A stretch of 64,000 nucleotides of DNA from an uncultured Acidobacteriota bacterium (GCA_964442185.1 CAYTWT010000293.1:17902-81901); one strand, 5' to 3'. Numbered from the stretch's first letter, positions 999-23,411 are shown. Notes: generated from the letters alone by a model not told the origin. Program-made: numbers and translations.

Positions 999-1993
999 GG
1001 GAGCATCTGGCGCGCGTCCTGGCTGGAGAACGGCTCGGCGAAGCCGAGGCGGGTGAGGCCATGGCCACGATCATGGACGGCGCGGCGACGCCGGCCCAGA
1101 TCGGCGCGCTGCTGGCGGCGCTTGCCGTGCGCGGTGAGACCGAAGACGAGGTCGTAGGTTTTGCGCGCGTCATGCGAGCGCGGGCCACCAAGCTCCGCTC
1201 CCGGGGCGCCATCGACACGTGTGGCACCGGCGGCGATGGCGCGGGCACTTTCAACATCTCGACGCTGGCCTCGTTCGTCGTCGCCGCCTGCGGCGTGAGT
1301 GTCGCCAAACACGGCAACCGCTCCTCGGGTGGGCAGTGCGGGAGCGCCGATCTGCTCGAGGCGCTCGGGCTGCGGCTGGATCCCGGCCCGGAAACGGTCC
1401 AGCGCTCGCTCGACGAAGCCGGCTGGGCCTTTCTCTTTGCACCCGCCTTCCATGCCTCGACGCGCCACGCCGTGGGCCCGCGCAAGGAGTTGGGCGTGCG
1501 CACGGCGTTCAACCTGCTTGGTCCGCTCACGAACCCAGCCTTCCCTGAAGCCCAGATCGTCGGCGTGCCCAGGCCAGAGCTGGTCGTTTTCGTGTCGCGC
1601 TGCCTACGCCGGCTCGGCCTGAAGCGAGCCTGGGTGGTGCACGGCTCGGGCCTCGACGAGATCGGGCTCAGCGGGGAGACCCACGTAGTCGCCTTCGACG
1701 AGAGCGGCGATCGAGCCTTCACGATTCGCCCCGAAGAGGCTGGCCTGTCGCTGGCGCCGACGGAGGCGCTGCGTGGCGGCGACGCGGGCCAGAATGCCCG
1801 CTTGGCGCGGGCCATCCTCGAGGGAGAGGGCGGTCCAAGGCGCGACGTCGTGCTGCTCAACGCTGCGGCGGCCCTTTGCCTCGTCGGCCGGGGGGAGGAT
1901 CTGAGGAGCGGTGTTGCGCTCGCGGCGGCCGCCATCGACGACGGCCGGGCGCTTCGACTTCTGGAGCAGGTCAAGGAGATCGCTAGCACATGA
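995..1993 (+). CDS. trpD: Anthranilate phosphoribosyltransferase
   Basis: Start at in-frame ATG (MREHLARVL) overlapping trpG stop (ATGA); [20 protein letters not shown] motifs. Confidence 0.9.
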
Positions 1994-2793
1994 CCTCCGT
2001 CAGCGTGCTTGGCGAGATCGTGGCGCGGGCCCGGGCCCGCGTGCACGAGCAGCGGCGTGAGCTGCCGCTCGATCGGATTCTCTCGATGTCGCCTACGCCG
2101 GGCGGCCGCCGGGGCTTTCGCGCCAGCTTGGTGCGCCCCGATCGCATCAACGTGATCGCGGAGTTCAAGCGTCGCTCGCCCTCGAGCGGCCTGATCCGCG
2201 CCGATCTGCATCACGTGCGCGTAGCCCAGGCGTACGAGATCGCTGGCGCCGCGGCGCTATCCGTCCTCACTGAGGAAGAATACTTCGGCGGCTGCCTGGA
2301 CGACCTGCAAGAGTCCCGGGCTGCGACGCTTCTGCCCACGCTGCGGAAGGACTTTTTGGTCGACCCCTACCAGATCTGGGAATCCTGGATCGCAGGGACC
2401 GACGCCGCGCTCGTGATCGTGGCGGCGCTCTCGGATGCCGAGCTGAAGGCGCTGCTGGTCACGGCCGAGCAGGCCTCGATCGAGGCGCTCGTCGAGGTGC
2501 ACGACGAAACAGAGCTGGCGCGGGCCCTCCACGCCGGCGCCACCATCGTGGGAGTCAACAACCGCGACCTGCGCACCATGCAGGTCTCGCTTCAGACATC
2601 GCTGGATCTGGCCCCGCGCATCCCCGATGAGGTGGTCGCAATCTCGGAGAGTGGCATCCATGCGCCCGAGGACGTGCGCCGCCTGCGCGAGGCGGGCTAC
2701 GACGCAGTCCTGGTCGGCGAGCACCTGATGCGGGCGCCCGATCCCGGCGCCGCACTCGAGGCGCTGATCGCAGGGGCCTCGCAGGGCGCATGA
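1990..2793 (+). CDS. trpC: Indole-3-glycerol phosphate synthase
   Basis: NVIAEFKRRSPSSG, IGVNNRDL motifs; 4-bp overlaps both neighbours. Confidence 0.9.
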   Translation: MTSVSVLGEIVARARARVHEQRRELPLDRILSMSPTPGGRRGFRASLVRPDRINVIAEFKRRSPSSGLIRADLHHVRVAQAYEIAGAAALSVLTEEEYFGGCLDDLQESRAATLLPTLRKDFLVDPYQIWESWIAGTDAALVIVAALSDAELKALLVTAEQASIEALVEVHDETELARALHAGATIVGVNNRDLRTMQVSLQTSLDLAPRIPDEVVAISESGIHAPEDVRRLREAGYDAVLVGEHLMRAPDPGAALEALIAGASQGA

Positions 2794-3425
2794 GCCGACG
2801 CCGGCTGTTCGTGAAGATCTGCGGGATCACCACGAGCCAAGATGCGCAGCTGGCAGCGGAAGCCGGAGCCGACGCCATCGGCTTCGTGTTCTGGCCCGGC
2901 AGCCCGCGCTTCGTCGAGATCGACGCTGCGCGCGCGATCGGTGAGAAGCTGCCGGCGAGCGTGGTGCGCGTCGGCGTCTTCGTCGGCGCGAGCGGCGAAC
3001 AGATGCAGCGCACGGCGGACGCAGCGCGTCTCGATCTCCTCCAGCTTCACGGCGACGAACAGCCTGGTGCACTGCCGGCGCTGTGTCGCCCGGCCTGGAA
3101 GGTGCTGCGCGTCGGATCCGAGCTGGCACCGCACGAGATCCGGCGTTGGGCCGGGCGCGTCTCGGGGATCCTGCTCGATACGCGCTCCACGTCGGCGCCC
3201 GGGGGCACCGGCGAAAGCTTCGATTGGTCGCTGGCACGGATGGCGCGCGAGCATGCCGGCTTTCTGATGTTGGCCGGAGGCCTGCGCGCCGACAACGTGA
3301 GAGGCGCGATCGATGTCGTCCAACCCGACGGCGTCGATGTGTCGAGCGGCGTCGAGGCGAGCCCGGGCCGAAAGGACGCGGCAAAGGTGCGGGCGTTCGT
3401 GGCCGCGGCGCGGGCGACGGCATGA
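2790..3425 (+). CDS. trpF: Phosphoribosylanthranilate isomerase
   Basis: LFVKICGIT...[12 protein letters not shown] signature. Confidence 0.88.
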
Positions 3426-4597
3426 GCGTCGTGCCGGACGACAAGGGCCGCTTCGGACCCTACGGTGGACGCTACGTGCCCGAGACGCTTGTCGAACCAC
3501 TCGTCGAGCTGGAAGCCGCCTACGCCGAGGCCCGGCGCGACGTCGCGTTCCGGAAGGAACTTCAGGAGCGGCTGCGCGATTTCGTAGGGCGGCCGACACC
3601 GCTCACGTTCGCCGAGCGTCTCTCAACTCGCCTTGGCTGCCGCGTCTACCTCAAGCGCGAGGACCTGTGCCACACGGGGGCCCACAAGATCAACAACGCG
3701 CTCGGCCAGGGCCTGCTCGTGAAGCGCATGGGCAAGACGCGCGTGGTGGCCGAGACCGGGGCCGGTCAGCACGGCGTCGCGACCGCGACGGTCTGTGCGC
3801 TGCTCGGCCTCGAGTGTGTCGTCTACATGGGCACCGAGGACATGGCGCGCCAGGCGCCGAATGTCCAGCGCATGCGGCTGCTCGGCGCTGAGGTGCGCGG
3901 CGTCGACTCGGGCACGCGGACGCTCAAGGACGCGATCAACGAGGCCATGCGGGACTGGGTCACGAACGTGCGGACGACCCACTACCTGCTGGGCTCGGCC
4001 CTGGGCGCCCACCCATACCCGATGATGGTGCGCGACTTCCAAGCCGTGATCGGCGAGGAAGCGCGCATGCAGGTGCTCGGCCAGGCCGGCACGCTGCCCG
4101 ACCTGTTGGTCGCCTGCGTGGGCGGCGGTTCGAACGCGATCGGCCTCTTCACCGCCTTCCTCGACGACCCGGTCGCCATGTTCGGGGTCGAGGCCGGCGG
4201 CCGCTCGAGCAAGCCCGGCGATCATGCGGCCCGCTTCCTCGCCGTCGGCGCCGGCGTCGGCGTGCTTCACGGAACGCGCACGTACCTCCTGCAGGACGCG
4301 GCCGGCAACGTGCTGCCGACGCACTCGGTCTCGGCCGGTCTCGACTACCCGGCCGTCGGCCCCGAGCACGCGATGCTCCACGATCAGGGCCGCGTCACCT
4401 ACGACAGCGCGTCCGACGACGAGGCGCTGGCCGCGTTCCACCTGCTGAGCGAGATCGAGGGCATCGTTCCGGCGCTGGAGTCGTCCCACGCCATTGCATG
4501 GCTGGTGCGCTCGGCGTCGTCGTTCCCTGGCCAGCTGGCAATCCTCAACTTGAGCGGACGCGGCGACAAGGACCTGGGCATAGTCGAGGGCCGATGA
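3422..4597 (+). CDS. trpB: Tryptophan synthase beta chain
   Basis: Start at ATG ([23 protein letters not shown]) overlapping trpF stop; [12 protein letters not shown]-lysine motif. The long upstream extension in the ORF track is out-of-operon artefact. Confidence 0.92.
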
Positions 4598-5699: not shown

Positions 5700-6740
5700 A
5701 TGGTCATCGTGATGGAGAAGGCCGCCAGCGAGGAACAGGTCCAGAAGGTCATCGAGTCGCTCGTCGCGGCGGGCTACGACGTGCACCGCTCGACTGGAGT
5801 CAGCCACACGGTCCTCGGCGCGGTGGGCACGCCTAGCCGCGTCGTCGACCCGAGCTCGCTCGAGATGTTGCCGGGGGTTCGCGAGGTCGTGAAGATCTCG
5901 GAGCCCTACAAGCTAGTGGGGCGCACCTTCAAGCGCGAAGATACAGTCGTGAACGTGTCGGGTACCCTGTTGGGCGGCCGCGAGGTGGTCGTGATGGCCG
6001 GGCCCTGCTCCGTCGAGTCGCGCGAGCAAGTGGGGAGGGTCGCGAAGGCGGTCCAGTCCGCGGGCGCACGTGTCTTGCGCGGCGGCGCCTTCAAGCCGCG
6101 AACCTCGCCCTACGCGTTTCAGGGTCACGGCGAGCAAGCCCTGCTCTGGATGCGCGAGGCGGCCGACGCGAACGGCCTCACGGTGATCAGCGAAGTGATG
6201 GACCCTCGCGCGCTCGAGATGATGTTGCGCTACGTCGACTGTCTCCAGGTCGGGGCGCGCAACATGCAGAACTTCGACCTGCTGAAGGAGCTGGGTAGAG
6301 TGCGCCGGCCCGTGCTGCTGAAGCGCGGCCTCTCGGCCACGATCGAGGAGTGGCTGCTGTCGGCCGAGTACATGCTTGCCGGCGGCAACCTGCAGATCAT
6401 TCTCTGTGAGCGCGGGATCAGGACTTTCGAGAGCGCCACGCGCAACACCCTCGACATCTCGGCGATCCCGGTGGTCAAGAAGCGAAGCCATCTGCCGATC
6501 GTCGTCGACCCGAGCCATGGAACCGGCCGGCGCGATATGGTGATCCCGATGGCCCGGGCGGCAATCGCCGCGGGCGCCGATGGCCTGCTGATCGAGGTCC
6601 ACAACGATCCCGACCGGGCGCTTTCCGACGGCGCCCAGAGTCTCTATCCTGAGCAGTTCGAGGCGCTGATGGGGGAGCTGCGCGTGATCGCGCCGGTGCT
6701 CGGCCGGAGCCTGCCACTGGCACGCGCTCTCACATCGTGA
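5700..6740 (+). CDS. 3-deoxy-7-phosphoheptulonate (DAHP) synthase, type I-beta with N-terminal ferredoxin-like regulatory domain
   Basis: N-terminal ~70 aa regulatory domain then NVSGTLLGG...VVMAGPCSVES...KPRTSPY catalytic core as in Thermotoga/Bacillus DAHPS. Confidence 0.85.
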   Translation: MVIVMEKAASEEQVQKVIESLVAAGYDVHRSTGVSHTVLGAVGTPSRVVDPSSLEMLPGVREVVKISEPYKLVGRTFKREDTVVNVSGTLLGGREVVVMAGPCSVESREQVGRVAKAVQSAGARVLRGGAFKPRTSPYAFQGHGEQALLWMREAADANGLTVISEVMDPRALEMMLRYVDCLQVGARNMQNFDLLKELGRVRRPVLLKRGLSATIEEWLLSAEYMLAGGNLQIILCERGIRTFESATRNTLDISAIPVVKKRSHLPIVVDPSHGTGRRDMVIPMARAAIAAGADGLLIEVHNDPDRALSDGAQSLYPEQFEALMGELRVIAPVLGRSLPLARALTS

Positions 6741-7507
6741 GCGAGGCCGCCATAGTCGTAGAGGGCCTCACCAAGGTCTTCAAGGAAAAGACCGCGGTCG
6801 ATCGCCTCTCGTTTCGGGTGGCACGCGGGTGCTTCTTCGGTTTTCTCGGACCCAACGGCGCGGGCAAGAGCACGACGATCAAGATGCTCACCGGCCTGCT
6901 GCGGCCGACCTCGGGAGACGCCGTCATCGAGGGCCTTCGGCTCTCGCAGAACCTGCTCGGCGTGAAAGGCCTGATCGGCGTCCTGCCCGAGGAGCTACCG
7001 CTCTACGAGCGCCTCACGGGCGAGGAGTATCTGCACTTCGCCGGCCGCATGTACGGGCTGGGCCGGGCCGAGGTTCGGCGGCGGAGCGAGGAACTGCTGG
7101 AGTTTCTGTCGCTCGAGGGCGATCGCCGCAAGCTGCTCCTTGACTACTCGCAGGGCATGAAGAAGAAGGCAGCCCTGGCCGCGGCCCTCATCCACAATCC
7201 GCGGGTGCTCTTCCTCGACGAGCCCTTGAATGGCATCGATCCGATCTCGGGCCGCGTGGTGACTGACCTGCTCCGGCGCATGGCCCAGAAGGGCGTCACG
7301 CTGTTCTTCACCACCCACGCCCTCGACGTCGCCGAGCGGCTGTGCGACGAGGTGGCTGTAATCGACCACGGGCGGATCGTGGCCCAGGGGACGCTCGATG
7401 AGATCCGAGCGCAGCGCCAGGTCGAGGGTGGCGCCAGCCTCGAAGACGTGTTTCTGAAGCTGGTGGCGGCTGACGTGCGGAGGGATGACCTCTCGTGGCT
7501 CGGCTGA
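6737..7507 (+). CDS. ABC transporter ATP-binding protein (ABC-2 / exporter type)
   Basis: Walker A GPNGAGKST, ABC signature and Walker B FLDEP; start overlaps DAHPS stop. Confidence 0.85.
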   Translation: MSEAAIVVEGLTKVFKEKTAVDRLSFRVARGCFFGFLGPNGAGKSTTIKMLTGLLRPTSGDAVIEGLRLSQNLLGVKGLIGVLPEELPLYERLTGEEYLHFAGRMYGLGRAEVRRRSEELLEFLSLEGDRRKLLLDYSQGMKKKAALAAALIHNPRVLFLDEPLNGIDPISGRVVTDLLRRMAQKGVTLFFTTHALDVAERLCDEVAVIDHGRIVAQGTLDEIRAQRQVEGGASLEDVFLKLVAADVRRDDLSWLG

Positions 7508-11991: not shown

Positions 11992-13506
<1,515 letters not shown>

Positions 13507-13540: not shown

Positions 13541-13975
13541 TCAGGGGTCCTGTACGTCCGTGCGATCGCCGGCGCCGGGCCGGACGGTGATCTGTACGTT
13601 CTGCGTCGCGAAGGGCTTGCCGGTGCGGCGCAGCGTCACCTTGACGTTGTAGGTGGAAGCCCGGCCGTAGGTGTGGTTGGCCGTGAAGCGACGCTCGATC
13701 TTGGTGGTTCCGGGCTCGAACGGAACACAGTCGCCTTCCTGCACGCTCTTGCCCCCGTCGTCCCATTCCCACGTGAGCTCGGGACAGTAGAAGTCCTCGA
13801 TGTCGTCGCCGCCAGCCAGCTCCGCCGTGAACAGCACGCTGACGGGCGAGAAGGAGAAGCGCGGGGTCCCGCGCAGGGCCAAGCTCGGCTTCTTGCCCTT
13901 GGCGTCCTCCGCCGCGCTGCCGGGGCCGGCGGCGAGAGCAAGCAGGACGGGGAAGGCCACGGCACGGACATGCAT
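13541..13975 (-). CDS. Secreted hypothetical protein, PKD/Ig-like beta-sandwich
   Basis: Signal peptide MHVRAVAFPVLLALAAGPGSAAE; two Cys; no catalytic motif recognised. Confidence 0.5.
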   Translation of the reverse strand: MHVRAVAFPVLLALAAGPGSAAEDAKGKKPSLALRGTPRFSFSPVSVLFTAELAGGDDIEDFYCPELTWEWDDGGKSVQEGDCVPFEPGTTKIERRFTANHTYGRASTYNVKVTLRRTGKPFATQNVQITVRPGAGDRTDVQDP

Positions 13976-14047
13976 CGGAAACTCCTCGGAAGCCCCCTTC
14001 CAATTTTCATTCTAGTCTCAAACGCCCCCGCCATAGAATGCGGGGTC

Positions 14048-14761
14048 ATGTCCGAGCCAAGGCTCCTGCGCCTCGCACCCAGCGCCTCCCTCAAGGAGAA
14101 GCGTCTGACCGCGCTCCTTGCAGGACGAGCCGCCGATGATCCCGCACTCGCCGAGGTCGTCGAAGACGCGCAGCTTCTCGGCAGCCTGGAGCTTGCCGGC
14201 CTCGCGGCGAGTTGGGGCGAGGTCCGGGCCTCACGCCGGGGCGAGGCGGCGCCGGTGGGAATCGCGGCTCTGCGCAGCGCCAACGTCGCCGTGGCACGCG
14301 ACAGCCCGCTCACGGTAGAAGCGCTCCTGGCGTGGCATGGCAGCGCCACCGGCAGCAGGGCTGGCTTTCGCACGACCGAAAGGTCCCGGGACGTCGGCCC
14401 TCCGCCAGCGCCGGCTTTGTTCGTCAAGAGCCGCCTGGCGATCGCCGAGCAGTGGCTCGGGAGCGCCAGCGCCCACGAGTTGAAGCCGGTCGAAGCCGCG
14501 GCCCTGGCGCTGGCACGGATCGTGGAAATCGCGCCATTCGCCGACGGCAACGGCCGCGTCTCTCGCCTCGCCGCTGCGCACTTGCTGCGCCGCGGAGGCG
14601 CCAGGCCGCCGATTCTCGTGGGCGGGGATCGGCCGCGGCTCGAGGCCGCACTTGCGTCGGCCTTCCGGCTCGACATGAGCCCGCTCGTGGCGCTCCTCGA
14701 TGAAGCCTCGGAACGGGCCCTCGACGTGATGATCCAGAGTCTCGAAGGGCGCGGCTACTAG
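14048..14761 (+). CDS. Fic/DOC-family protein with degenerate Fic motif (APFADGNGR instead of HPFx[DE]GNGR)
   Basis: Fic motif region IVEIAPFADGNGRVSRLAAAHLL; start ATG 72 bp from divergent secreted gene. Confidence 0.7.
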   Translation: MSEPRLLRLAPSASLKEKRLTALLAGRAADDPALAEVVEDAQLLGSLELAGLAASWGEVRASRRGEAAPVGIAALRSANVAVARDSPLTVEALLAWHGSATGSRAGFRTTERSRDVGPPPAPALFVKSRLAIAEQWLGSASAHELKPVEAAALALARIVEIAPFADGNGRVSRLAAAHLLRRGGARPPILVGGDRPRLEAALASAFRLDMSPLVALLDEASERALDVMIQSLEGRGY

Positions 14762-15729
14762 AGCAGGGCACCCAGGAAGTCGACGGCCCGCTCGCCGGCC
14801 CAGAAGGAACCGGGCGCCCCGCATGGAGCCACGAAGCCAACGTGGCCACCGGTCTTGAGCATCTCACGCGTGAGCAGGCCCGACGCCGGCAGTGGCCAGC
14901 GCGATACCGAAGCGGCCGGGATCATCGGGTCGTCCTGCGCCATGAGAATCAGTGCGGGTCGTCCGATCGCGCCAAGGTGTGGCCCAGCGCTCGAGCGAGC
15001 GTAGTAATCCGCCGCGTCTCGGTAGCCGCCATAGGGCGCCGTGATGGCTTCGTCGTAGCCGCGCACACTCGTGAGGCCCTGCTCGCGGCCGGCTTCGTAC
15101 AGGTCGGGTCGCGCCGCCTGGCGCTCGCGATAGGCGCGTCGCAGGTTGCGCATGAAGTAGAGCTGGTAGAGAACGTTGCCCGGCGCATCGAGCGCGGTCG
15201 CGCAGGCGTCGAGATCCAGCGGCGGCGACACGCCGACGACGCCGACGAGGCCGGCCGGCAGCTGGTCGCCGCTCCGGCCGAGCGCCAGCAGGACGAGGTT
15301 CGCGCCGAGCGAGAAACCCACCACGGCCAGGCGCGGCGTCAAATCGGCCAGCGCGTCCAGCACGGCCACCAGGTCCGAGTCGAGGCCGGCATTGTAGAGA
15401 ACTGCCGAGAAACCCATCCCGTCGCCAGCGCCGCGCATGTTCATGCGCACCACGTGCCAGCCTCTCGACCAGGCCAAAGCGCCCGTGGCCAAACCATACG
15501 TGGCGCTGTCCCAGCCGCCCAGCCCGTGGATCAGGACGAGCGCCGGCCGCGATTTGCGTGGCCCCGGCTGCCAGCTCGCGCGGAGCAGGAGACGAATCCC
15601 CCTGCCCGCCTCCACGATCACGTCCTCAGTGGGGTGCCGCCACTCGAGGTGGCGCCTTGACCAATAGCCGAGCAGCGTCTGGCGGTGACCGCCGGACGTG
15701 AAGAGGCGGGGCCTGAAAGGCCTCAACAA
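14758..15729 (-). CDS. Alpha/beta hydrolase, YheT/abhydrolase-type
   Basis: N-terminal FRPRLFTSGGHRQTLLG (YheT-family start), HG motif LVLIHGLGG, nucleophile elbow GFSLGAN; start assigned to TTG next to ADH stop (uncertain +/- few codons). Confidence 0.7.
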   Translation of the reverse strand: MLRPFRPRLFTSGGHRQTLLGYWSRRHLEWRHPTEDVIVEAGRGIRLLLRASWQPGPRKSRPALVLIHGLGGWDSATYGLATGALAWSRGWHVVRMNMRGAGDGMGFSAVLYNAGLDSDLVAVLDALADLTPRLAVVGFSLGANLVLLALGRSGDQLPAGLVGVVGVSPPLDLDACATALDAPGNVLYQLYFMRNLRRAYRERQAARPDLYEAGREQGLTSVRGYDEAITAPYGGYRDAADYYARSSAGPHLGAIGRPALILMAQDDPMIPAASVSRWPLPASGLLTREMLKTGGHVGFVAPCGAPGSFWAGERAVDFLGALL

Positions 15730-16751
15730 CGCAGGACGAGCTTTCCGAAGTGCTGCGAGGCCTCCATCATCTCGTGAGCGCGCCGCGCCTCCGCGAGGGG
15801 CAGCACGGCGTGGATCGCCGGTTTCAGCTTGCCGGCGAAGAGCAGCTCCGCCGCTTCGAGCAGCTCCGCTTTGCTGCCCATGTACGAGCCCATCAGCGTG
15901 AGCTGCTTGGAGAACAGGTAGCGGAGCTCGGTCGCGCCGTTCGGCCCCGTCGTCGCGCCGCACGTCACCAGCCGGCCCCGATGGGCGAGAGCCTGGATCG
16001 AGCGTTCCCACGTCGCTTGCCCGACATGTTCGATCACCACCTCCACGCCCTTCTTGTTCGTGAGGCGCCGGACTTCGGCGAGCACGTCGCCCTGGTGATG
16101 GTCGATCACCTCGTCGGCGCCCAGGCTCCGCGCCAGTTTCAGCTTCGGACCGGTGCCGGCAGTAGCGATCACGCGCGCGCCCCAGTGCTTCGCGACCTGG
16201 ATCGCCGCCATGCCGACACCGCTACCGGCGGCCCAGACGAGCACGTCCTCGCCCGGCCTCACACGGGCGCGGGTCACGAGCATGCGCCACGCGGTGAGGA
16301 ACACGAGCGGAAAGGCCGCGGCCGCTTCGAAGCTGATGTTGCCTGGGAGCGGGATCACGTTTGCGAGCGGGCAGCGCACCAGTTCCGCGTAGCCGCCGTG
16401 GAGCTGGGCGCCGAGGATCCGGTAGTGGCGACAGGCGCTGTCCTCGCCGGAAAGGCAGGCGCGACATCGACCGCAGGAGGTGCCGGGCGAAAGCATGACA
16501 CGCTGGCCGATGGCCAGGCCCTCGCAGGCGCTGCCGAGTGCTTCGACCTCCCCGGCGATGTCGTTGCCGAGGATGTGCGGGAGGGGGATCGGCCGCCCAG
16601 GCAGGCCGCGCCGCGTCCACAGGTCGAGATGGTTGAGTGCGCACGTGCGCACGCGAACCAGGACCTCGCCGGGCGCCGCGACGGGATCGGGGGAGTCCTC
16701 GTAGCGCAGGACTTCCGGTCCGCCGTGCTCGTGCATCACCACCGCCTTCAT
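15723..16751 (-). CDS. Zinc-dependent alcohol dehydrogenase / MDR-family oxidoreductase
   Basis: MKAVVMHEHGGPEVL..., GxGxxG Rossmann AAGSGVGMAAIQ; MDR fold. Confidence 0.85.
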   Translation of the reverse strand: MKAVVMHEHGGPEVLRYEDSPDPVAAPGEVLVRVRTCALNHLDLWTRRGLPGRPIPLPHILGNDIAGEVEALGSACEGLAIGQRVMLSPGTSCGRCRACLSGEDSACRHYRILGAQLHGGYAELVRCPLANVIPLPGNISFEAAAAFPLVFLTAWRMLVTRARVRPGEDVLVWAAGSGVGMAAIQVAKHWGARVIATAGTGPKLKLARSLGADEVIDHHQGDVLAEVRRLTNKKGVEVVIEHVGQATWERSIQALAHRGRLVTCGATTGPNGATELRYLFSKQLTLMGSYMGSKAELLEAAELLFAGKLKPAIHAVLPLAEARRAHEMMEASQHFGKLVLRC

Positions 16752-16805
16752 GACCTTTCCTCCGGCCTATAATCGCCGCTGCTCGAGAGGCGCTGAGAGC
16801 CCGAA

Positions 16806-17456
16806 ATGATACAGGCGTTTCATGTTTACAAGCAGTACGACCGGGACTCCATAGCACTCTCGGACATCACGCTGCATGTCGAAAAGGGCGAGTTCTGCTT
16901 TCTCACGGGCCCCTCGGGCGCCGGGAAGACGACCTTCCTCAAGTTGGTGTTCCGCGAGGAGCTGCCTACCCAGGGCCAGATCCTCGTGGGCGGGCGCAAC
17001 GTCACCGCGATTCCCGATGTGCAGATCCCCGAGCTGCGGCGCTCCATCGGCGTCGTGTTCCAGGACTTCAAGCTGCTCAAGCGGAAAACCATCCTGGAGA
17101 ACGTCGCCTTCGTGCTGCGGATCCTCGCGGTGCCGCACAAGGAGCAAAAGCGGCGCGCCTTCGCGGCGCTCAAGGCCGTGGGCCTTCACCACAAGATGCA
17201 CGCCTACCCGATGCAGCTCTCAGGCGGTGAGCAGCAGCGTGTGGCGATCGCCAGGGCCTTGATCAACGAGCCGATGCTGCTGCTGGCGGACGAGCCCACG
17301 GGCAACCTCGACCCCGAGATGGCCCAGGAGATCATGACCCTCTTCCAGGAGGTCAACGCGCGCGGCACGACGGTGCTCGTTGCCACCCACGATCGCGAGA
17401 TGATCCAGCGCATGGGTAAGCGCGTGATCACGATAGAGCGGGGGCGCGTGAGTTAG
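16806..17456 (+). CDS. ftsE: Cell-division ABC ATPase FtsE
   Basis: MIQAFHVYKQY..GPSGAGKTT..LSGGEQQRVAIARAL..LLADEPTGNLD; FtsE-specific N-terminus. Confidence 0.88.
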   Translation: MIQAFHVYKQYDRDSIALSDITLHVEKGEFCFLTGPSGAGKTTFLKLVFREELPTQGQILVGGRNVTAIPDVQIPELRRSIGVVFQDFKLLKRKTILENVAFVLRILAVPHKEQKRRAFAALKAVGLHHKMHAYPMQLSGGEQQRVAIARALINEPMLLLADEPTGNLDPEMAQEIMTLFQEVNARGTTVLVATHDREMIQRMGKRVITIERGRVS

Positions 17457-17605
17457 GCGTTCGACAGGGCACGCTCCGCGCTGTGATGAAACAGCGCAGG
17501 AATTGCGATCGGCCCCAAGGGCCGCGCGAAGGCCTTGCCGCCCTGGCCTCGCAAGCGGATTGCGTGCCGGCATCTTGATTGCATCAAACTCGAAAGGGGT
17601 TCCCC

Positions 17606-18367
17606 ATGGCGCTGGGATCGGGAGGCATGAGCCGGGCGCGGCGTGGCGCCCTTTTCGGCGCCTTCTGGTCGGCGGGTGCGCCTATCGGCTTGCTGTTGGT
17701 GCGCGGCCTCGCCGCGGGCACGCTTGATGCAGCCTTCGTCATGGCTGACCTGCGGGCCGAGGCTTGGAGCTACGCCTACGTTGCCGCGTCTACGGCTGTT
17801 GCCTTCACGCTGCTCGGATTCATCTTGGGCCGCCAGGCCGACCAGTTCTTCGAGGCCTCGACCAGCGACCCACTCACCGGACTGCGCAACCGGCGGGCGC
17901 TGCGCGAGTCTCTGGTGAGAGAATGGGCCAGGGCCCGGCGCTACCAAACACCCTTGTCGGTTCTCGCCATCGACCTCGACGGGCTGAAGGTCATCAACGA
18001 CAGCCTGGGCCACAGGGCCGGCGACGCGGCCATCGACTGCGCTGCCCAGGCGCTCGTCCGAAATTCGCGCCAGGCGGACACGGCGGCCCGCTGGGGAGGC
18101 GACGAGTTCCTCCTGCTAGCGCCAGAGACCGACCGGGCCGAGGCTCTGCGCCTCGGCGAGCGGGTTCGCGCCGTGTGCACCGAGCAGGCGCAGAGCGGCA
18201 TCGGGCGTCGGCTCACGCTCTCGATCGGCGTCGCCACGCGAACACCCGGCTCGTGTTCGGAAGCCACCGAATTGGAAGCCACCGAAGAAGAGCTGCTGCG
18301 TGCCGCCGATCAGGCGCTCTACCAGGCCAAGCGCGCCGGTGGCAACTGCGTCACGGCGGCCGAGTGA
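17606..18367 (+). CDS. Membrane-anchored GGDEF diguanylate cyclase
   Basis: N-terminal 3 TM segments, then RNRRAL...AIDLDGLKVINDSLGH...RWGGDEFLLL GGDEF active site; AAAGGGG SD 6 nt upstream of ATG. Confidence 0.8.
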   Translation: MALGSGGMSRARRGALFGAFWSAGAPIGLLLVRGLAAGTLDAAFVMADLRAEAWSYAYVAASTAVAFTLLGFILGRQADQFFEASTSDPLTGLRNRRALRESLVREWARARRYQTPLSVLAIDLDGLKVINDSLGHRAGDAAIDCAAQALVRNSRQADTAARWGGDEFLLLAPETDRAEALRLGERVRAVCTEQAQSGIGRRLTLSIGVATRTPGSCSEATELEATEEELLRAADQALYQAKRAGGNCVTAAE

Positions 18368-18402
18368 AGGCTTGGCCCTTGGGTATGTGAGGTGCGCGGC
18401 GC

Positions 18403-19017
18403 TCAGGCGCCAAGCATGGCGCTGACACGGGCGACAACCGCCTCGAGCGCGACGGCATTCTCGGCGCCTTCGGGCACAATCAGGTCCGCATAACGCTTGC
18501 TGGGCTCGACGAACTCGAGATGCATCGGACGCACCGAGGACAGATACTGCCGCTCGACGGACTCGAACGAACGGCCGCGATCCTTGATGTCGCGGCGCAG
18601 ACGCCGCAGGATCCGCACGTCGGCGTCGGTGTCGATGAAGAGCTTGATATCCATCAGCCGACGCAGCGGCTCTTCGGCCAGGATCAGGATGCCCTCTAGC
18701 AAGATCACGGGTCGTGGCAGCAGGGGATCGCTCAGGACTCGCCGCGAATACATGGCGTGGTCATAGCTCAACTGCGGCGCCGGCCGACCGGCCTTGAGGT
18801 CGCGCAGGTCCTGCACCAGCAGTGTCGTGTCGAAGGCGTCGGGATGATCGTAGTTGATCGCCGCCCGCGCGGCGGCGTCCAGGTTGCTACCGTCCTTGTA
18901 GTAGGAGTCCTGCGCAATCGTCACGCAGCGCTCGCGGTCAAAGCGCGAAGCGACTTTCTCTGCAAAGGAGGTCTTGCCGGAGCCAGTCCCGCCTGCGATC
19001 CCGATCAGAACGCCCAC
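18403..19017 (-). CDS. udk: Uridine kinase
   Basis: GIAGGTGSGKTS P-loop, DSYYK, LLEGILIL motifs. Confidence 0.9.
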   Translation of the reverse strand: MGVLIGIAGGTGSGKTSFAEKVASRFDRERCVTIAQDSYYKDGSNLDAAARAAINYDHPDAFDTTLLVQDLRDLKAGRPAPQLSYDHAMYSRRVLSDPLLPRPVILLEGILILAEEPLRRLMDIKLFIDTDADVRILRRLRRDIKDRGRSFESVERQYLSSVRPMHLEFVEPSKRYADLIVPEGAENAVALEAVVARVSAMLGA

Positions 19018-19022
19018 TGGCG

Positions 19023-19038
19023 CTGGATTATAATCCAG
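19023..19038. promoter_or_regulatory. Perfect 16-bp palindrome CTGGATTATAATCCAG containing a consensus -10 (TATAAT) in the 26-bp udk/ftsX divergent spacer
   Basis: Self-complementary AT-rich element in a ~70% GC genome, 5-10 bp from both start codons. Confidence 0.4.
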
Positions 19039-19043
19039 GGCGC

Positions 19044-19937
19044 ATGCTGCTCCTGCGGGCCCTCGCGTACTTCGTGGAGGAGGCGTTCACCAGCCTCTGG
19101 CGGAGCCGGCTCATCAACGCGCTTTCGATCGGCACCATCGGTGTCAGCCTGTTCGTGCTCGGCGCGTTCCTGACCGTGGCGAGCAACCTGAATGCGGTCG
19201 TCACGCGCTGGACGCAGAAGGTGCAGGTGACGTTCTACCTCGAAGACGGCCTCGAGCCACGGATTCGCGAGATGTTTGAAAGCCGGCTCAAGGACGATCC
19301 CGCCGTGGAGAGCCTGGCGAGCGTGAGCCGGCAGGCGGCTCTGGATCGGTTTAGAGCGCTGTTCCGCGATCTGCGCGCCTTGCCCGACGACCTCGGCGAG
19401 AACCCGTTCCCGGAATCGCTCGAGGTGACAGTCAAGGCGGGGCACCAGTCGCCCGAGGAGATCGGCCGCTTCGTGGCCGCTTTCGGAGGGGCGGCCGGCG
19501 TCGAGGAGGTGCAGTACGACCTGCTGTGGATCGAGCGACTCGCAACGGTGGTGCGTTTGGTGCGTGGCCTGGGCGGCGTGCTCGGCGGGATCCTCGCCCT
19601 CGCCAGCATCTTCACGATCTCGAATGTGATCCGCCTGACTGTCTATGCTCGCCAGGACGAACTCGACATCATGCGCCTGGTGGGCGCGACGCGGGCCTAC
19701 GTGCGCGGGCCGTTCATCGTCGAAGGCATGCTGCAGGGAGGGCTCGGCGGCCTCGTGGCGGTGGGCCTGCTCTGGGGCGCACTGCGCTTCGTCTCGCGCG
19801 ACGTGCTGGCCGCCTCGGAGTTGCTGGGCCGCGCTGCGGTCTTCCTGCCCGGGGAATTGAGCGTCGCGATCGTGCTGGGTGGGATGACGGTCGGGCTGGT
19901 CGGAAGCCTCGTGAGCCTTGGCCGCAGCCAGGTGTAG
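19044..19937 (+). CDS. ftsX: Cell-division permease-like protein FtsX
   Basis: FtsX-family N-terminus, periplasmic loop, 4 TM; RLV conserved region IRLTVYARQDELDIMRLVGAT. Confidence 0.85.
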   Translation: MLLLRALAYFVEEAFTSLWRSRLINALSIGTIGVSLFVLGAFLTVASNLNAVVTRWTQKVQVTFYLEDGLEPRIREMFESRLKDDPAVESLASVSRQAALDRFRALFRDLRALPDDLGENPFPESLEVTVKAGHQSPEEIGRFVAAFGGAAGVEEVQYDLLWIERLATVVRLVRGLGGVLGGILALASIFTISNVIRLTVYARQDELDIMRLVGATRAYVRGPFIVEGMLQGGLGGLVAVGLLWGALRFVSRDVLAASELLGRAAVFLPGELSVAIVLGGMTVGLVGSLVSLGRSQV

Positions 19938-19945
19938 GGCCGTCT

Positions 19946-20707
19946 CTAGAAGGTGTAGGTTCGGCCCTGCACCATGACGTGCAGGTTACGGATCTTCAGC
20001 GCTTTCAGCTCGCGCTTGATCACAGCCAGGTGCTTGGGCTTGCAGCCGTAAATGTAGACCGGCACGTCCCGCTTGAGCTTCTTTAGTTCGAGCTCCAGCA
20101 TCCAAGGCGTCAGGTGGCCGGAGACCTTGGCCAGTTCCCTCAGTTCGTTGGGGAAGGAACACTCCGTGATCACGCCCTTCAGGCGCTTGGTGTTGTTGGT
20201 GATCTCCCAGAAGCGATGCGTTGGCCCCGTGTCGCTCGAGAAGGCGAGCGCGCCCTTCTTGTCCTCGAGGATGTAGCCCGCGGTCGGCACGCTATGCGAG
20301 ACGTGGACCGCGCGAATCCTGAGGCCGTTCACGACGAAGGGCTCCTCGGGCTGGACCTCGACGAGCTTCAAGACCGGGGTCATGTCGTTGGGGAGGCAGG
20401 TAAAGTCGGGCCAGGTGTGATTGTTGAAGAGATGATTCCGCATCGACGCGACGACCTCGGGGATCGCGTAGATGCGTAGCGCGAAACCAGGTGCCGTGAA
20501 GTTGTTGTCGATCAGAAACGGGAGGGTGCAGGTGTGATCCAGGTGCGAGTGCGAGATGAGGATGTCCTTGACGCGCTCCTGCTCACGCAGTGACAGCGCG
20601 TTCGAGACCCAGCCGGCGTCGAGAGCAAGCGTGTCGTTCACGAGGAACGACGTCATGCCGTGGCCCGGGATGTTGCCCCCGTAGCACCCAAGAGCTCTGA
20701 GCTTCAT
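19946..20707 (-). CDS. Class II 3',5'-cyclic-nucleotide phosphodiesterase (metallo-beta-lactamase fold)
   Basis: HxHLDH signature ISHSHLDHTC; ~58% GC versus ~70% flank. Confidence 0.7.
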   Translation of the reverse strand: MKLRALGCYGGNIPGHGMTSFLVNDTLALDAGWVSNALSLREQERVKDILISHSHLDHTCTLPFLIDNNFTAPGFALRIYAIPEVVASMRNHLFNNHTWPDFTCLPNDMTPVLKLVEVQPEEPFVVNGLRIRAVHVSHSVPTAGYILEDKKGALAFSSDTGPTHRFWEITNNTKRLKGVITECSFPNELRELAKVSGHLTPWMLELELKKLKRDVPVYIYGCKPKHLAVIKRELKALKIRNLHVMVQGRTYTF

Positions 20708-20934
20708 GCGCGCCTAGGGCTCACAGCCCTGCCGCCGCGAGGCCTCGTCTTCCATGCTGTTACGTCCCAAGTCTCTCATCTTTCGGCGGTTACTGGGCAG
20801 TAGCTCAGGGACGGTAGCACGCGCTCTCGGGAAGTGTCAAGTGTACGGCGCACTGCGCCACGCCGCGCTGGGCACGGCTCATACAATGGTTGGTATGTTG
20901 CTGCGTAAGATCCCCGAGGGATTGTACTTTTCCC

Positions 20935-20964
20935 TTGACACGCCAAAGGGCCGATCCGTAAACT
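20935..20964 (+). promoter_or_regulatory. Candidate sigma-70 promoter TTGACA-N18-TAAACT
   Basis: Consensus -35 hexamer, TAnnnT -10, in 507-bp lower-GC intergenic region. Confidence 0.35.
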
Positions 20965-20971
20965 CGACGCA

Positions 20972-21200
20972 CGCGAGAAAGGAGGTGGTCCAGTGGACAG
21001 TAGCAAACCCCGCGAGGTGGCTGACGCCTAGGTCATAAGCCGAGCGAATCCATCCTGAATCGCTTCAACTGGATGCCTCCAAGCCGGGTCGCAGGATCGG
21101 TCCCGCGAAATCGGAAAGAGGCCCGCTAGGCCGTAGCCGACCTGGCGAATCCCAACAGCGCACCGGGCCCTGGGGAGTTGGTGTACTCTCCAGGGTTTTC
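20972..21200 (+). ncRNA. Candidate ~230-nt small transcript (sRNA or small-protein mRNA) bounded by promoter and intrinsic terminator; contains SD AAAGGAGGTG + GTG-initiated 12-codon ORF (20993..21031)
   Basis: Promoter at 20935-20964, perfect SD at 20978-20987, 12-codon ORF, terminator hairpin at 21168-21199. Confidence 0.3.
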
Positions 21201-21210
21201 GTGTTTCTGG
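21168..21210 (+). terminator. Rho-independent terminator: CCCTGGGGAG-loop-CTCTCCAGGG followed by TTTTCGTGTTTC
   Basis: GC stem plus U-tract on + strand only (A-tract precedes on - strand, so not the OPT terminator). Confidence 0.45.
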
Positions 21211-21214
21211 CAGC

Positions 21215-23362
21215 CTACTTCGCGCTGTCGAGCGGCTTGCGCGCGAAGTGGTAGAGGGAGAAAGCGAGCGCCGCGAAAGCGAGGATCCCGACCAGTGCGC
21301 TATCGTGGATGGCAGGCAGGGCCGCGCCTAGATCGATCGCTGCCTTGGGCAGCCATTCCCACTTCTCGGCGAGCTTGACGACGATCCCGAGCAGACCCAC
21401 GATGCCGCCCGCGGCGATGAGGCCGCTGGCATAGAGAGCGCCCGGGCTCGCCTCGTCGTCGTGCTTCTTCTCCTGGCCGCGCTCCACGAGCCAGCGCACG
21501 AGCCCACCGCAGAAGATCGCCGCGGTCGTGCCGATGGACAGGTAGGAGCCGACGGCGAAGCTCAGCGAGCGGATCCCGAGCAACTCGACGCCGATCACGA
21601 GAAAGACGCCAAGGAACACGAGTCCCCACGGCAGCCGTCGGTCGAGGATGCCGCGGATCACGACCGACATGAGGCGCGCCTGCGGCGCCGGAGCCTCCTG
21701 GCTGCCGATGCCCTGCACCCATTGAATCTCGATGCGCCCGGTCGCGGGATTGAACAGATAGGTTCCCTCGGGGATGGTCGGCGAACCGAGCACGTTGAGC
21801 AGCTTGTAGCTGTGCCCTTCGTAGCTGTAGGACTCCTCCAGGACGCTCACGCCCTCGGGAAGCTGCGCGGCGTCTACGGCGATGTCGGCTGGGACGTATT
21901 TCTCGAGCCCCTTGTTGACCGCGAGCAGCGTCACGCCGATCACGAACGAGGACGCGAGCACGCCCAGGAAGAGGCCTAGCTGCTGCGCTGACGGCGTGGC
22001 GCCCACCAGGTAGCCCGTTTTCAGGTCTTGCGAGGTGTTGCCGGCGTTGGCGGCGGCGATGCACACCGTGCCGCCGATCATCAGGGCGAGCGCGCCGTAG
22101 GCGCCGCTCGTCCAGCCTTGCAACAGGAAGAGCCCGCACGTCGCCATCAGGGTAGCGATCGCCATCCCTGAGATCGGGTTCGAGGAGGTGCCGATCAGCC
22201 CGACGAGCCGCGAGGACACGGTGACGAACAGGAAGCCGAAGATCACGATCAGGATGGACGCCAGCAGGTTGTGCAACGCGCTCGTGTGTGCCCCGGGCAC
22301 CGGCTTGAACGTGAGCAGCAGCCACATCGCGACGACGATCGCGGCGGAGCCTGCCAGCACGACGGTCATCGGCAAATCGCGCGCCGTGCGACCCACGCTC
22401 GGCGCCGCCTGGGGCGAGCGACTCTTGCGCAGGTCGGCCGCGCCGGCCTTGAGCGCGGCGATGATGGTGGGTAGCGTGCGCGCCAGCGTGATGAGCCCGG
22501 CGGCCGCCACCGCGCCGGCGCCGATGTAGCGGATGTAGAAGTTCCACATCTCGCTCGAGGTCATGTCCGCGATTGGCTTGACGCTCGGGTAGATCGGCGT
22601 CGGCACCATGCTGCCGAAGAACTTGATCGTGGGCATCATCACGAGCCAGGAGAAGACGCCGCCCGAGAAGATCACGCCGGCGATCTTCGGCCCGATGATG
22701 TAGCCGACGCCCAGGTACTCCGAGGTGGTCGCCGCGCGCAGCGACGCTCCCGGCAGCCACTTCGGGTCGTAGGTGGGGATCGGATTCAGCACCGCCAGCG
22801 CGTTCTCGTTCTGGAACACCGTGTACAGACTGCCCAGGCCGAGGCCGTAGAAGACCCGGCTCGCGAATGAGCCGCCCTTCTCGCCCGCGATCAACACGTC
22901 GGCGCAAGCGGTGCCCTCGGGATAGAGCAGGTTGCCGTGCTCCTTGACGATCAGTTGGCGCCGCAGCGGGATCATAAACAGTACGCCCAGGATGCCGCCG
23001 ATCATGGCGAGCAGCAGGATGCGCGTGTACTCGAGCGGGAAGCCCAGGAAGATCAGCGCCGGCAGCGTGAAGATGACCCCGCCCGCCACCGACTCGCCCG
23101 CGGAGCCCGTGGTCTGGACCAGGTTGTTCTCGAGGATGCTGGCCTTGCCGAGGGCCCGCAGCAAGCTGATCGAGAGCACGGCGATCGGGATCGAGGCCGC
23201 GACCGTCAGGCCCGCACGCAGGCCCACGTAGACCGTCACGGCGCCAAAGACGATACCGAACAGCATCCCGAGAATGACAGCCCGGGGCGTGAACTCGGGC
23301 ACGTTCGCCGTGTCGGCGATGTAGGGCTTGAACTCGGCGGCCTGGGGTTTCTCTTCAGCCAT
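21215..23362 (-). CDS. OPT-family oligopeptide transporter
   Basis: 715 aa, ~16 TM, OPT-family conserved segments. Confidence 0.85.
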   Translation of the reverse strand: MAEEKPQAAEFKPYIADTANVPEFTPRAVILGMLFGIVFGAVTVYVGLRAGLTVAASIPIAVLSISLLRALGKASILENNLVQTTGSAGESVAGGVIFTLPALIFLGFPLEYTRILLLAMIGGILGVLFMIPLRRQLIVKEHGNLLYPEGTACADVLIAGEKGGSFASRVFYGLGLGSLYTVFQNENALAVLNPIPTYDPKWLPGASLRAATTSEYLGVGYIIGPKIAGVIFSGGVFSWLVMMPTIKFFGSMVPTPIYPSVKPIADMTSSEMWNFYIRYIGAGAVAAAGLITLARTLPTIIAALKAGAADLRKSRSPQAAPSVGRTARDLPMTVVLAGSAAIVVAMWLLLTFKPVPGAHTSALHNLLASILIVIFGFLFVTVSSRLVGLIGTSSNPISGMAIATLMATCGLFLLQGWTSGAYGALALMIGGTVCIAAANAGNTSQDLKTGYLVGATPSAQQLGLFLGVLASSFVIGVTLLAVNKGLEKYVPADIAVDAAQLPEGVSVLEESYSYEGHSYKLLNVLGSPTIPEGTYLFNPATGRIEIQWVQGIGSQEAPAPQARLMSVVIRGILDRRLPWGLVFLGVFLVIGVELLGIRSLSFAVGSYLSIGTTAAIFCGGLVRWLVERGQEKKHDDEASPGALYASGLIAAGGIVGLLGIVVKLAEKWEWLPKAAIDLGAALPAIHDSALVGILAFAALAFSLYHFARKPLDSAK

Positions 23363-23411
23363 CCTCTGCTCCTCTCACGCCTGTTTGGAAGTATGGGATT
23401 ATACTCGGCCC

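Follow-up and report, generated by a model that had tools for sequence, protein, structure and literature searches.

An antisense udk gene lies between ftsE and ftsX in Vicinamibacteria and may share a bidirectional -10 element with ftsX

We analyzed a 64,000-nucleotide stretch of DNA from an uncultured Acidobacteriota bacterium (GCA_964442185.1, CAYTWT010000293.1:17902-81901; hereafter, the window), in which the two genes of the FtsEX cell division complex lie apart. The ATPase gene ftsE (16806-17456, + strand) encodes 216 amino acids, and the gene of the membrane subunit, ftsX (19044-19937, + strand), encodes 297. The 1587-bp interval between them holds two genes: one for a GGDEF-family protein (17606-18367, or from 17627, + strand) and, on the opposite strand, the uridine kinase gene udk (18403-19017). 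In other bacteria, ftsE and ftsX are usually adjacent and co-transcribed. Taking the evidence together, we consider it probable that this is an ordinary FtsEX system in the gene order typical of its class, in which udk inserted long ago and shares a promoter with ftsX, while the GGDEF gene arrived later as a passenger. The observations behind this account are the gene identities, the conservation patterns, the boundaries of the insertion and the signs of purifying selection. The components of the locus are ordinary members of known families, and it is their organization that is unusual. A preliminary description of the window had already reported intact, same-strand ftsE and ftsX genes split by a GGDEF gene and an oppositely oriented udk, and our analysis confirms both the coordinates and the families.

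FtsE passes the TIGR02673 equivalog model with 298.3 bits (cut-off 264.85) and reaches only 189.8 bits against the LolD model, whose cut-off is 307.75. The preliminary description had allowed that this gene might encode an unrelated or lipoprotein-release ABC ATPase; with the equivalog model passed and LolD far under its cut-off, a generic ABC ATPase and LolD are both ruled out. FtsX falls 1 bit short of the TIGR00439 model (FtsX_Gneg; 253.9 bits, cut-off 255) and contains the extracytoplasmic domain PF18075 (FtsX_ECD, amino acids 60-156, 49.1 bits, cut-off 23.5) followed by the C-terminal permease domain PF02687 (FtsX, amino acids 179-292, 41.3 bits, cut-off 25.5). Udk, with 204 amino acids and a GTG start, matches NF004018 (253.3 bits, cut-off 180) and TIGR00235 (223 bits, cut-off 220.3). 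Among the predicted genes of the window, most of which were judged from their first residues only, there was no second ftsEX pair, and the only other ABC ATPase (6737-7507) has a partner that lacks an FtsX domain in a profile scan. The genome scan for FtsX, which relies on peptide patterns, returned one locus per genome assembly.

That scan, run on one genome per species, yielded 50 related loci with FtsX identities of 44-94%, on which the proteins of the window were placed by tblastn. All are labeled Acidobacteriota, mostly of the class Vicinamibacteria, with the exception of a contig-end fragment labeled Candidatus Eisenbacteria (L044). FtsE is 84-96% identical to its Vicinamibacteria orthologues in most loci, 72% in L049 and 62% in the Thermoanaerobaculia locus L047. 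Both ftsE and ftsX are seen in 44 loci, and 41 of these have the order ftsE (forward), udk (reverse), ftsX (forward). The usual wider block runs from an alpha/beta-hydrolase gene, through a quinone oxidoreductase gene (in a subset of loci), ftsE, udk and ftsX, to a class-II phosphodiesterase-like gene and a gene for an OPT-family (oligopeptide) transporter. In the remaining three loci, the two Vicinamibacteria loci L025 and L031 and Thermoanaerobaculia L047, udk is absent and ftsE directly adjoins ftsX; the FtsE orthologues are thus partnered with ftsX, either by adjacency in these three or by synteny in the 41 others. As a side observation, the 253-bp ftsE-ftsX spacer of L047 contains 8.4 tandem copies of the heptamer GATCGCA (6880-6938, 92% matches).

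We built a neighbor-joining tree from concatenated FtsE and FtsX, rooted on L047 and without support values. On this tree, udk is present in the first-branching clade (L036, L038 and L039), and L025 is nested among udk-bearing loci, which points to a secondary loss of udk in L025. The two placements together suggest that udk already interrupted the pair in the ancestor of the sampled Vicinamibacteria and was lost at least once afterwards. The closest relative of the window on the tree is L002 (FtsE 96%, FtsX 88% identical), which has udk and no GGDEF gene. The comparison of the ftsE-ftsX interval in relatives, proposed in the preliminary description, thus returns a class-wide udk and a recently inserted GGDEF gene: what had been treated there as a single insertion appears to be two events of very different age.

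The region has a G+C content of ~65-70%, and the junction between udk and ftsX is compact. Neither open reading frame (ORF) has an earlier start codon between its upstream stop and the start used here, so that the spacer between the two is at most 26 bp. Within it lies a perfect 16-bp palindrome, CTGGATTATAATCCAG (19023-19038, both strands), with the core GGATTATAATCC at 19025-19036. The central ATTATAAT (19027-19034) reads TATAAT on either strand. The two hexamers overlap by 4 bp, and each ends 9 nt before a start codon: the one on the + strand (19029-19034) before the ATG of ftsX and the one on the - strand (19032-19027) before the start codon of udk.

To see how far this arrangement is kept, we surveyed 51 sequences, namely the window, 49 genome loci and a 4.6-kb metagenome contig (L051). 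The udk-ftsX spacer measures 23-30 bp in 32 of 46 pairs. TATAAT before ftsX is kept in 44 of the 51 sequences, ATTATAAT in 39, and the full GGATTATAATCC, a perfect 12-bp dyad, in 24. The position matrix of the motif reads GGATTATAATC(C), with variable, G+C-rich flanks. All 40 occurrences of ATTATAAT in 593 kb of related loci fall inside or beside the udk/ftsX spacer, immediately upstream of ftsX. Spacing is conserved as well: in 40 of 46 pairs, 6-9 nt separate the hexamer on the - strand from the udk start, and in 34 of the 44 sequences with TATAAT before ftsX, the distance from the + strand hexamer to the ATG is 6-14 nt. The bases between the hexamers and the start codons are C-rich and do not resemble a Shine-Dalgarno (SD) sequence.

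TATAAT also marks other genes of the region. The window contains four copies, where ~2.4 are expected, and they precede ftsE (by 32 nt), ftsX (9 nt), udk (9 nt) and the OPT transporter gene (35 nt). This fourth copy (AGTATAATCC, 23398-23403, - strand) lies upstream of the gene at 21215-23362 (- strand) and shares the TATAATCC form with the elements of ftsX and udk. Among the non-palindromic TATAAT copies in the window and the related loci, 39 of 44 are situated within 120 nt upstream of an ORF.

Taken together, these features fit a reading in which the palindrome is a bidirectional -10 element used by both udk and ftsX, whose mRNAs would be leaderless or nearly so. Transcription usually starts ~7 nt after the -10 element (PMC12825309), a distance that predicts such mRNAs for both genes. 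From this usual distance alone, the start sites would fall at ~19041 on the + strand and ~19020 on the - strand, ~21 bp apart. An SD sequence is used by only 41% of Vicinamibacteria genes (PMC10783764). E. coli has well-established bidirectional promoters in which one symmetric -10 element serves both strands; their preferred start spacings are 18, 10 and 23 bp (Warman, Grainger and colleagues; PMC12825309). The element described here resembles them in serving divergent genes through one short AT-rich pseudo-palindrome that carries a -10 on both strands, and its predicted spacing is close to the preferred 18 and 23 bp. It differs in that both hexamers are perfect TATAAT with a 4-bp overlap, in its class-wide conservation, and in the leaderless or near-leaderless nature of both mRNAs, as predicted from the sequence.

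Instead of two overlapping -10 elements, the palindrome could chiefly be the binding site (operator) of a dimeric transcription factor that controls udk and ftsX together. The perfect dyad in 24 sequences includes its GG/CC flanks, the motif is confined to this single site in 593 kb, and a regulator may bind within a bidirectional promoter of this type, as does the MerR-family protein SoxR (PMC12825309), all of which speak for this possibility. The symmetry, however, follows automatically from two facing -10 elements, because the GG/CC flanks are the bases just downstream of TATAAT on each strand, seen from the other side. The half-motif TATAATC(C/G) is also found, without the dyad, before ftsE and the OPT transporter gene, and the spacing to both start codons suits a -10 element followed by a transcription start. 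Furthermore, in the udk-less loci L025 and L031 the dyad is gone, but the half facing ftsX, CTATAATC, persists at a distance of 7-11 nt from the ftsX ATG, as expected of two -10 elements and not of a palindromic operator. In L011, finally, a ~1.55-kb insert of lower G+C content splits the palindrome (4176-4183 and 5722-5733) with GGATTATA at both junctions, which looks like an 8-bp target duplication; as a result, udk and ftsX each keep a -10-like element. We therefore regard a principal role as operator as improbable, although the operator and promoter readings are not mutually exclusive.

Two side observations concern the same junction. The insert in L011 contains a single ORF of 176 amino acids of unknown function. 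In L048, an inverted duplication (1277-3080) spans the palindrome together with part of udk and the 5' portion of ftsX, giving the order ftsX fragment (+), ftsX fragment (-), udk fragment (+) and the rest of ftsX; this is a genuine inversion centered near the promoter or else an assembly artefact.

A candidate -10 element, TATAAT at 16768-16773 (+ strand), is situated 32 nt before the ftsE ATG, where it would act as the ftsE promoter, and GCTATAATCG/C is kept ~20-30 nt upstream of this ATG in most related loci. The comparison thus supports ftsE and ftsX as separate transcription units, each with a -10 element of the TATAATC form. The preliminary description had proposed that ftsX has its own promoter, reasoning that the antisense udk blocks read-through, although transcription may well continue across an antisense gene. 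We agree with the proposal on other grounds: the supported independence of ftsX rests on a conserved promoter-like element, which lies 9 nt before its ATG in the window and is kept in 44 of 51 sequences and even in the udk-less L025 and L031, and not on the mere presence of an antisense gene. Relocation of ftsE in several lineages fits independent transcription units as well: ftsE lies 0.6-5 kb from udk with other genes in between, and no ftsE was seen within the 2.6-6.3 kb upstream in L009 and L014.

The two genes might nevertheless still be largely co-expressed through a long transcript that starts at the ftsE promoter, runs across the antisense udk into ftsX and lowers udk expression, in the manner of an excludon. 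The stop codons of ftsE and udk are 0-30 bp apart or overlapping in most loci (sharing CTAG in L019), which leaves no room for a terminator, and a terminator scan of 16000-21500 found no terminator-like site between ftsE and ftsX in the window. This would not account for the consensus -10 directly before ftsX, which persists even where ftsE adjoins ftsX, nor for the lineages in which ftsE has moved away. In addition, such a transcript would contain ~600 nt of antisense RNA that is not translated and on which Rho would be likely to act, and a rho gene is present in the window (11992-13506). Read-through as the main source of ftsX expression thus seems to us unlikely, and separate transcription of the two genes is the reading that we retain.

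Downstream of ftsE, a hairpin (GCGCTGT-GATGAA-ACAGCGC, 17478-17497) begins 22 nt after the stop codon. It has no T-run and falls within a stretch of ~45 nt that is missing from L051; it could act as a weak terminator or as a stabilizer between ftsE and the GGDEF gene.

The GGDEF gene was found in none of the 50 related loci, including the 41 with the ftsE-udk-ftsX order and the sister L002. The exact protein is known from just one other short assembly, and an 88% identical version is encoded on L051, whose content runs through the hydrolase, oxidoreductase, ftsE, GGDEF and udk genes to the start of ftsX. Counting the window and L051, the gene is thus present in 2 of 43 places with the ftsE-udk-ftsX order. 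A blastn comparison with L002 places the break-points at window position 17451 (L002 6347) and 18413 (L002 6372), so that ~961 bp in the window (17452-18412) and in L051 correspond to 24 bp in the sister. The GGDEF gene is the sole gene of this insert. We found no signs of a mobile element at the insert, neither a transposase or integrase nor inverted repeats or a target duplication, and short repeats are at chance level. Between the window and L051, the ratio of nonsynonymous to synonymous substitution rates (dN/dS) is 0.23 for the GGDEF gene, compared with 0.18 for the oxidoreductase, 0.19 for udk and 0.026 for ftsE; purifying selection of this order indicates a working gene and not debris.

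The site of insertion has received other genes elsewhere. Between ftsE and udk, L037 (4841-6364) and L040 (4895-6358) carry a lytic transglycosylase with SLT and LysM domains, on the same strand as ftsE. The same slot holds a short-chain dehydrogenase in L028 and L045, an FAD oxidoreductase with an ECF sigma factor in L036 and L038, and an unknown protein in L029, L043 and L050, while in L012 it holds cytochrome bd oxidase (cydAB), a MazF toxin and a beta-propeller protein. Most simply, this comparison suggests that insertions are tolerated where the 3' ends of ftsE and udk converge, and that the GGDEF gene would be one of many passengers at this site. A cell-wall hydrolase beside ftsE, as in L037 and L040, is a more plausible partner of FtsEX than the GGDEF gene.

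Divergence from L051 is uneven along the locus. The synonymous divergence (dS) of udk is 0.52, about twice that of the oxidoreductase, ftsE and GGDEF genes (0.24-0.28), and Udk is nearer to that of L002 (89%) than to that of L051 (86%), the reverse of what is seen for the genes on its left. Recombination with a break-point close to the GGDEF/udk junction might explain this pattern.

The GGDEF protein comprises 253 amino acids, or 246 if translation begins at 17627. The ATG at 17606 is preceded at 7 nt by an SD-like AAAGGGG, and the alternative ATG at 17627 is the start conserved in L051. The protein matches PF00990 (139 bits) and TIGR00254 (143.5 bits), and its GGDEF domain aligns end to end with WspR and with the GGDEF structure 5euh; PleD was also matched. 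The motifs RWGGDEF, DxD..K..ND..GH and K..G.N are intact, with DLDGLKVINDSLGH and YQAKRAGGN aligning with WspR and 5euh, and an RxxD I-site is located five residues upstream of GGDEF (RQAD-TAARW-GGDEF). The protein is therefore probably an active diguanylate cyclase, that is, a source of cyclic di-GMP (c-di-GMP). Its N-terminus consists of ~80 amino acids of hydrophobic segments, at amino acids 14-47 (mean Kyte-Doolittle peak 1.7) and 55-75 (peak 1.8), in which profile scans recognized no sensor, periplasmic or HAMP module. Anchoring in the membrane through these two segments is plausible, in line with the preliminary description of a membrane-anchored protein whose gene has its own SD sequence. 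Within the gene (18259-18286), a perfect 13-nt repeat, GGAAGCCACCGAA, occurs twice with a spacing of 15 nt and in frame, giving EATELEATE; it adds five loop residues and is absent from the L051 orthologue.

The next-closest homologues are ~50% identical and have the same size and architecture. Proteins of this kind from soil and sediment metagenomes (P0003-P0120), some of them labeled Vicinamibacterales or Acidobacteria, are likewise anchored by two helices, have ~240 amino acids and are 45-55% identical. In the four neighborhoods that we read, their genes stand beside multihaem cytochrome genes (twice), hydrogenase-maturation genes and a globin gene, and not in a division locus. A further 80 GGDEF loci from the metagenome scan (31-52% identity) had no ftsE, udk or ftsX nearby, and none of the 89 homologue places checked in this identity range adjoins any of the three genes.

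To our knowledge, YfiN/DgcN is the one diguanylate cyclase with a well-known effect on division. In E. coli, it is an inner-membrane enzyme that acts as a cell-division inhibitor (PMC4992967). The window protein is likewise predicted to be an inner-membrane GGDEF enzyme, but it has no periplasmic sensor or HAMP module and keeps the RxxD I-site, which YfiN is reported to lack (PMC10127611). It scores 107.3 bits against the DgcN model NF007423, whose cut-off is 325, with the GGDEF domain alone matching, and is thus not an orthologue. Membership in SiaD was also rejected, with a score far under the cut-off.

The preliminary description had raised the possibility of a c-di-GMP input to the divisome. 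In such a scheme, the GGDEF protein would be made together with FtsE and, through local c-di-GMP or by binding the complex, would adjust septal hydrolysis or halt division. Some features would suit it: the gene follows ftsE on the same strand after 149-170 bp that contain no terminator-like site, its product is probably membrane-anchored with intact catalytic motifs, and it is under purifying selection in two genomes. These have to be set against its rarity in the locus and absence from the sister L002, the unrelated genes that fill the same slot in other lineages, the homologues that never adjoin ftsE, udk or ftsX, and the dissimilarity to YfiN/DgcN. Moreover, a literature search gave no report linking FtsEX with a diguanylate cyclase. 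The idea of a c-di-GMP input thus finds no support in the comparison, and we regard a functional tie to FtsEX as very improbable; most likely, the protein is a general source of c-di-GMP with no dedicated link to the complex. An Rfam scan of the whole window at gathering thresholds identified no c-di-GMP riboswitch or other family.

Several points weigh against the combined account of an old udk insertion, a shared udk/ftsX promoter and a passenger GGDEF gene. We found no convincing -35 element for ftsX or udk 16-18 bp upstream in either direction, and a consensus promoter scan of 16000-21500 reported no promoter-like site in the ftsE-ftsX interval. That scan requires a -35 element, which explains why it missed promoters there; the conserved -10 elements emerged solely from the comparative analysis. 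On a leaderless mRNA, the GTG start of udk would be expected to work less well than an AUG. The tree from which the age of the udk interruption was estimated is a rough one, being a simple, unbootstrapped tree of two proteins. Finally, the GGDEF gene could be co-transcribed with ftsE and have a local function, given its strand, its downstream position and its dN/dS of 0.23.

Some further features of the neighborhood were noted. Convergent to ftsX, and separated from it by 8 bp, is a gene with a metallo-beta-lactamase fold that matches class-II cyclic AMP phosphodiesterases (19946-20707, - strand; PF02112, 62.9 bits); this class-II phosphodiesterase-like gene directly follows ftsX in most related loci. 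Just upstream of the locus are the rho gene mentioned above and a Fic-domain gene (13673-14761). The candidate ORFs of the hydrolase (14758-16011) and the oxidoreductase (15723-16751) overlap by ~290 bp, and for this reason the true start of the hydrolase is probably later than 14758; its profile match starts at residue 99.

The sequence of events that we propose is as follows. Early in Vicinamibacteria, udk would have come to lie antisense between ftsE and ftsX, and the two division genes would have been transcribed separately, each from a -10 element of the TATAATC form. At the udk/ftsX junction, GGATTATAATCC would offer TATAAT on each strand, with transcription predicted to begin at or a few nt before each start codon. 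The upstream promoter region of udk would then lie inside ftsX and vice versa, which may help to keep the pair together in evolution. The GGDEF gene would have entered the convergent ftsE/udk junction in a recent ancestor of the window genome and L051.

In E. coli, ftsE and ftsX are part of a ftsY-ftsE-ftsX operon, and FtsEX activates septal peptidoglycan hydrolases via EnvC. The system of the window is similar to this type in that FtsE passes the equivalog model, FtsX has both its extracytoplasmic and permease domains, and both are single intact genes on one strand. It differs in that ftsE and ftsX neither adjoin nor overlap, in the separate -10 element of each gene, in the class-wide antisense udk and, here, in the GGDEF gene. 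No EnvC-like M23 gene and no ftsY were seen among the neighbors scanned (~6.7-27.6 kb of the window). A literature search for unlinked ftsE and ftsX returned nothing usable; a Borrelia paper among the results describes adjacent genes. The locus stands out by the class-wide split of ftsE and ftsX and by the putative two-way -10 element of udk and ftsX; the FtsEX locus and bidirectional promoters as such are known.

The locus also provides a caution for annotation by guilt by association, as the GGDEF gene seems embedded in a division locus and yet appears to be a recent passenger. A more far-reaching version, in which the halves of FtsEX are uncoupled in transcription, ftsX is locked to udk by one symmetric leaderless promoter and the GGDEF gene adds a c-di-GMP output to the ftsE unit, appears improbable to us. 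On that improbable version, RNA polymerase would bind the element in only one orientation at a time, so that the expression of ftsX and udk would be mechanically linked, and septal cell-wall remodeling would be tied to pyrimidine salvage and hence to the supply of UDP-sugar precursors. A perfect, conserved two-way -10 element with predicted leaderless outputs would be an unusually clean example of a bidirectional promoter outside E. coli, and the locus is a natural case in which to test such promoters. FtsEX is usually treated as an operon pair with its stoichiometry set by co-transcription; a class with separate ftsE and ftsX promoters, apparently matched by similar consensus -10 elements, would mean that co-transcription is not required.

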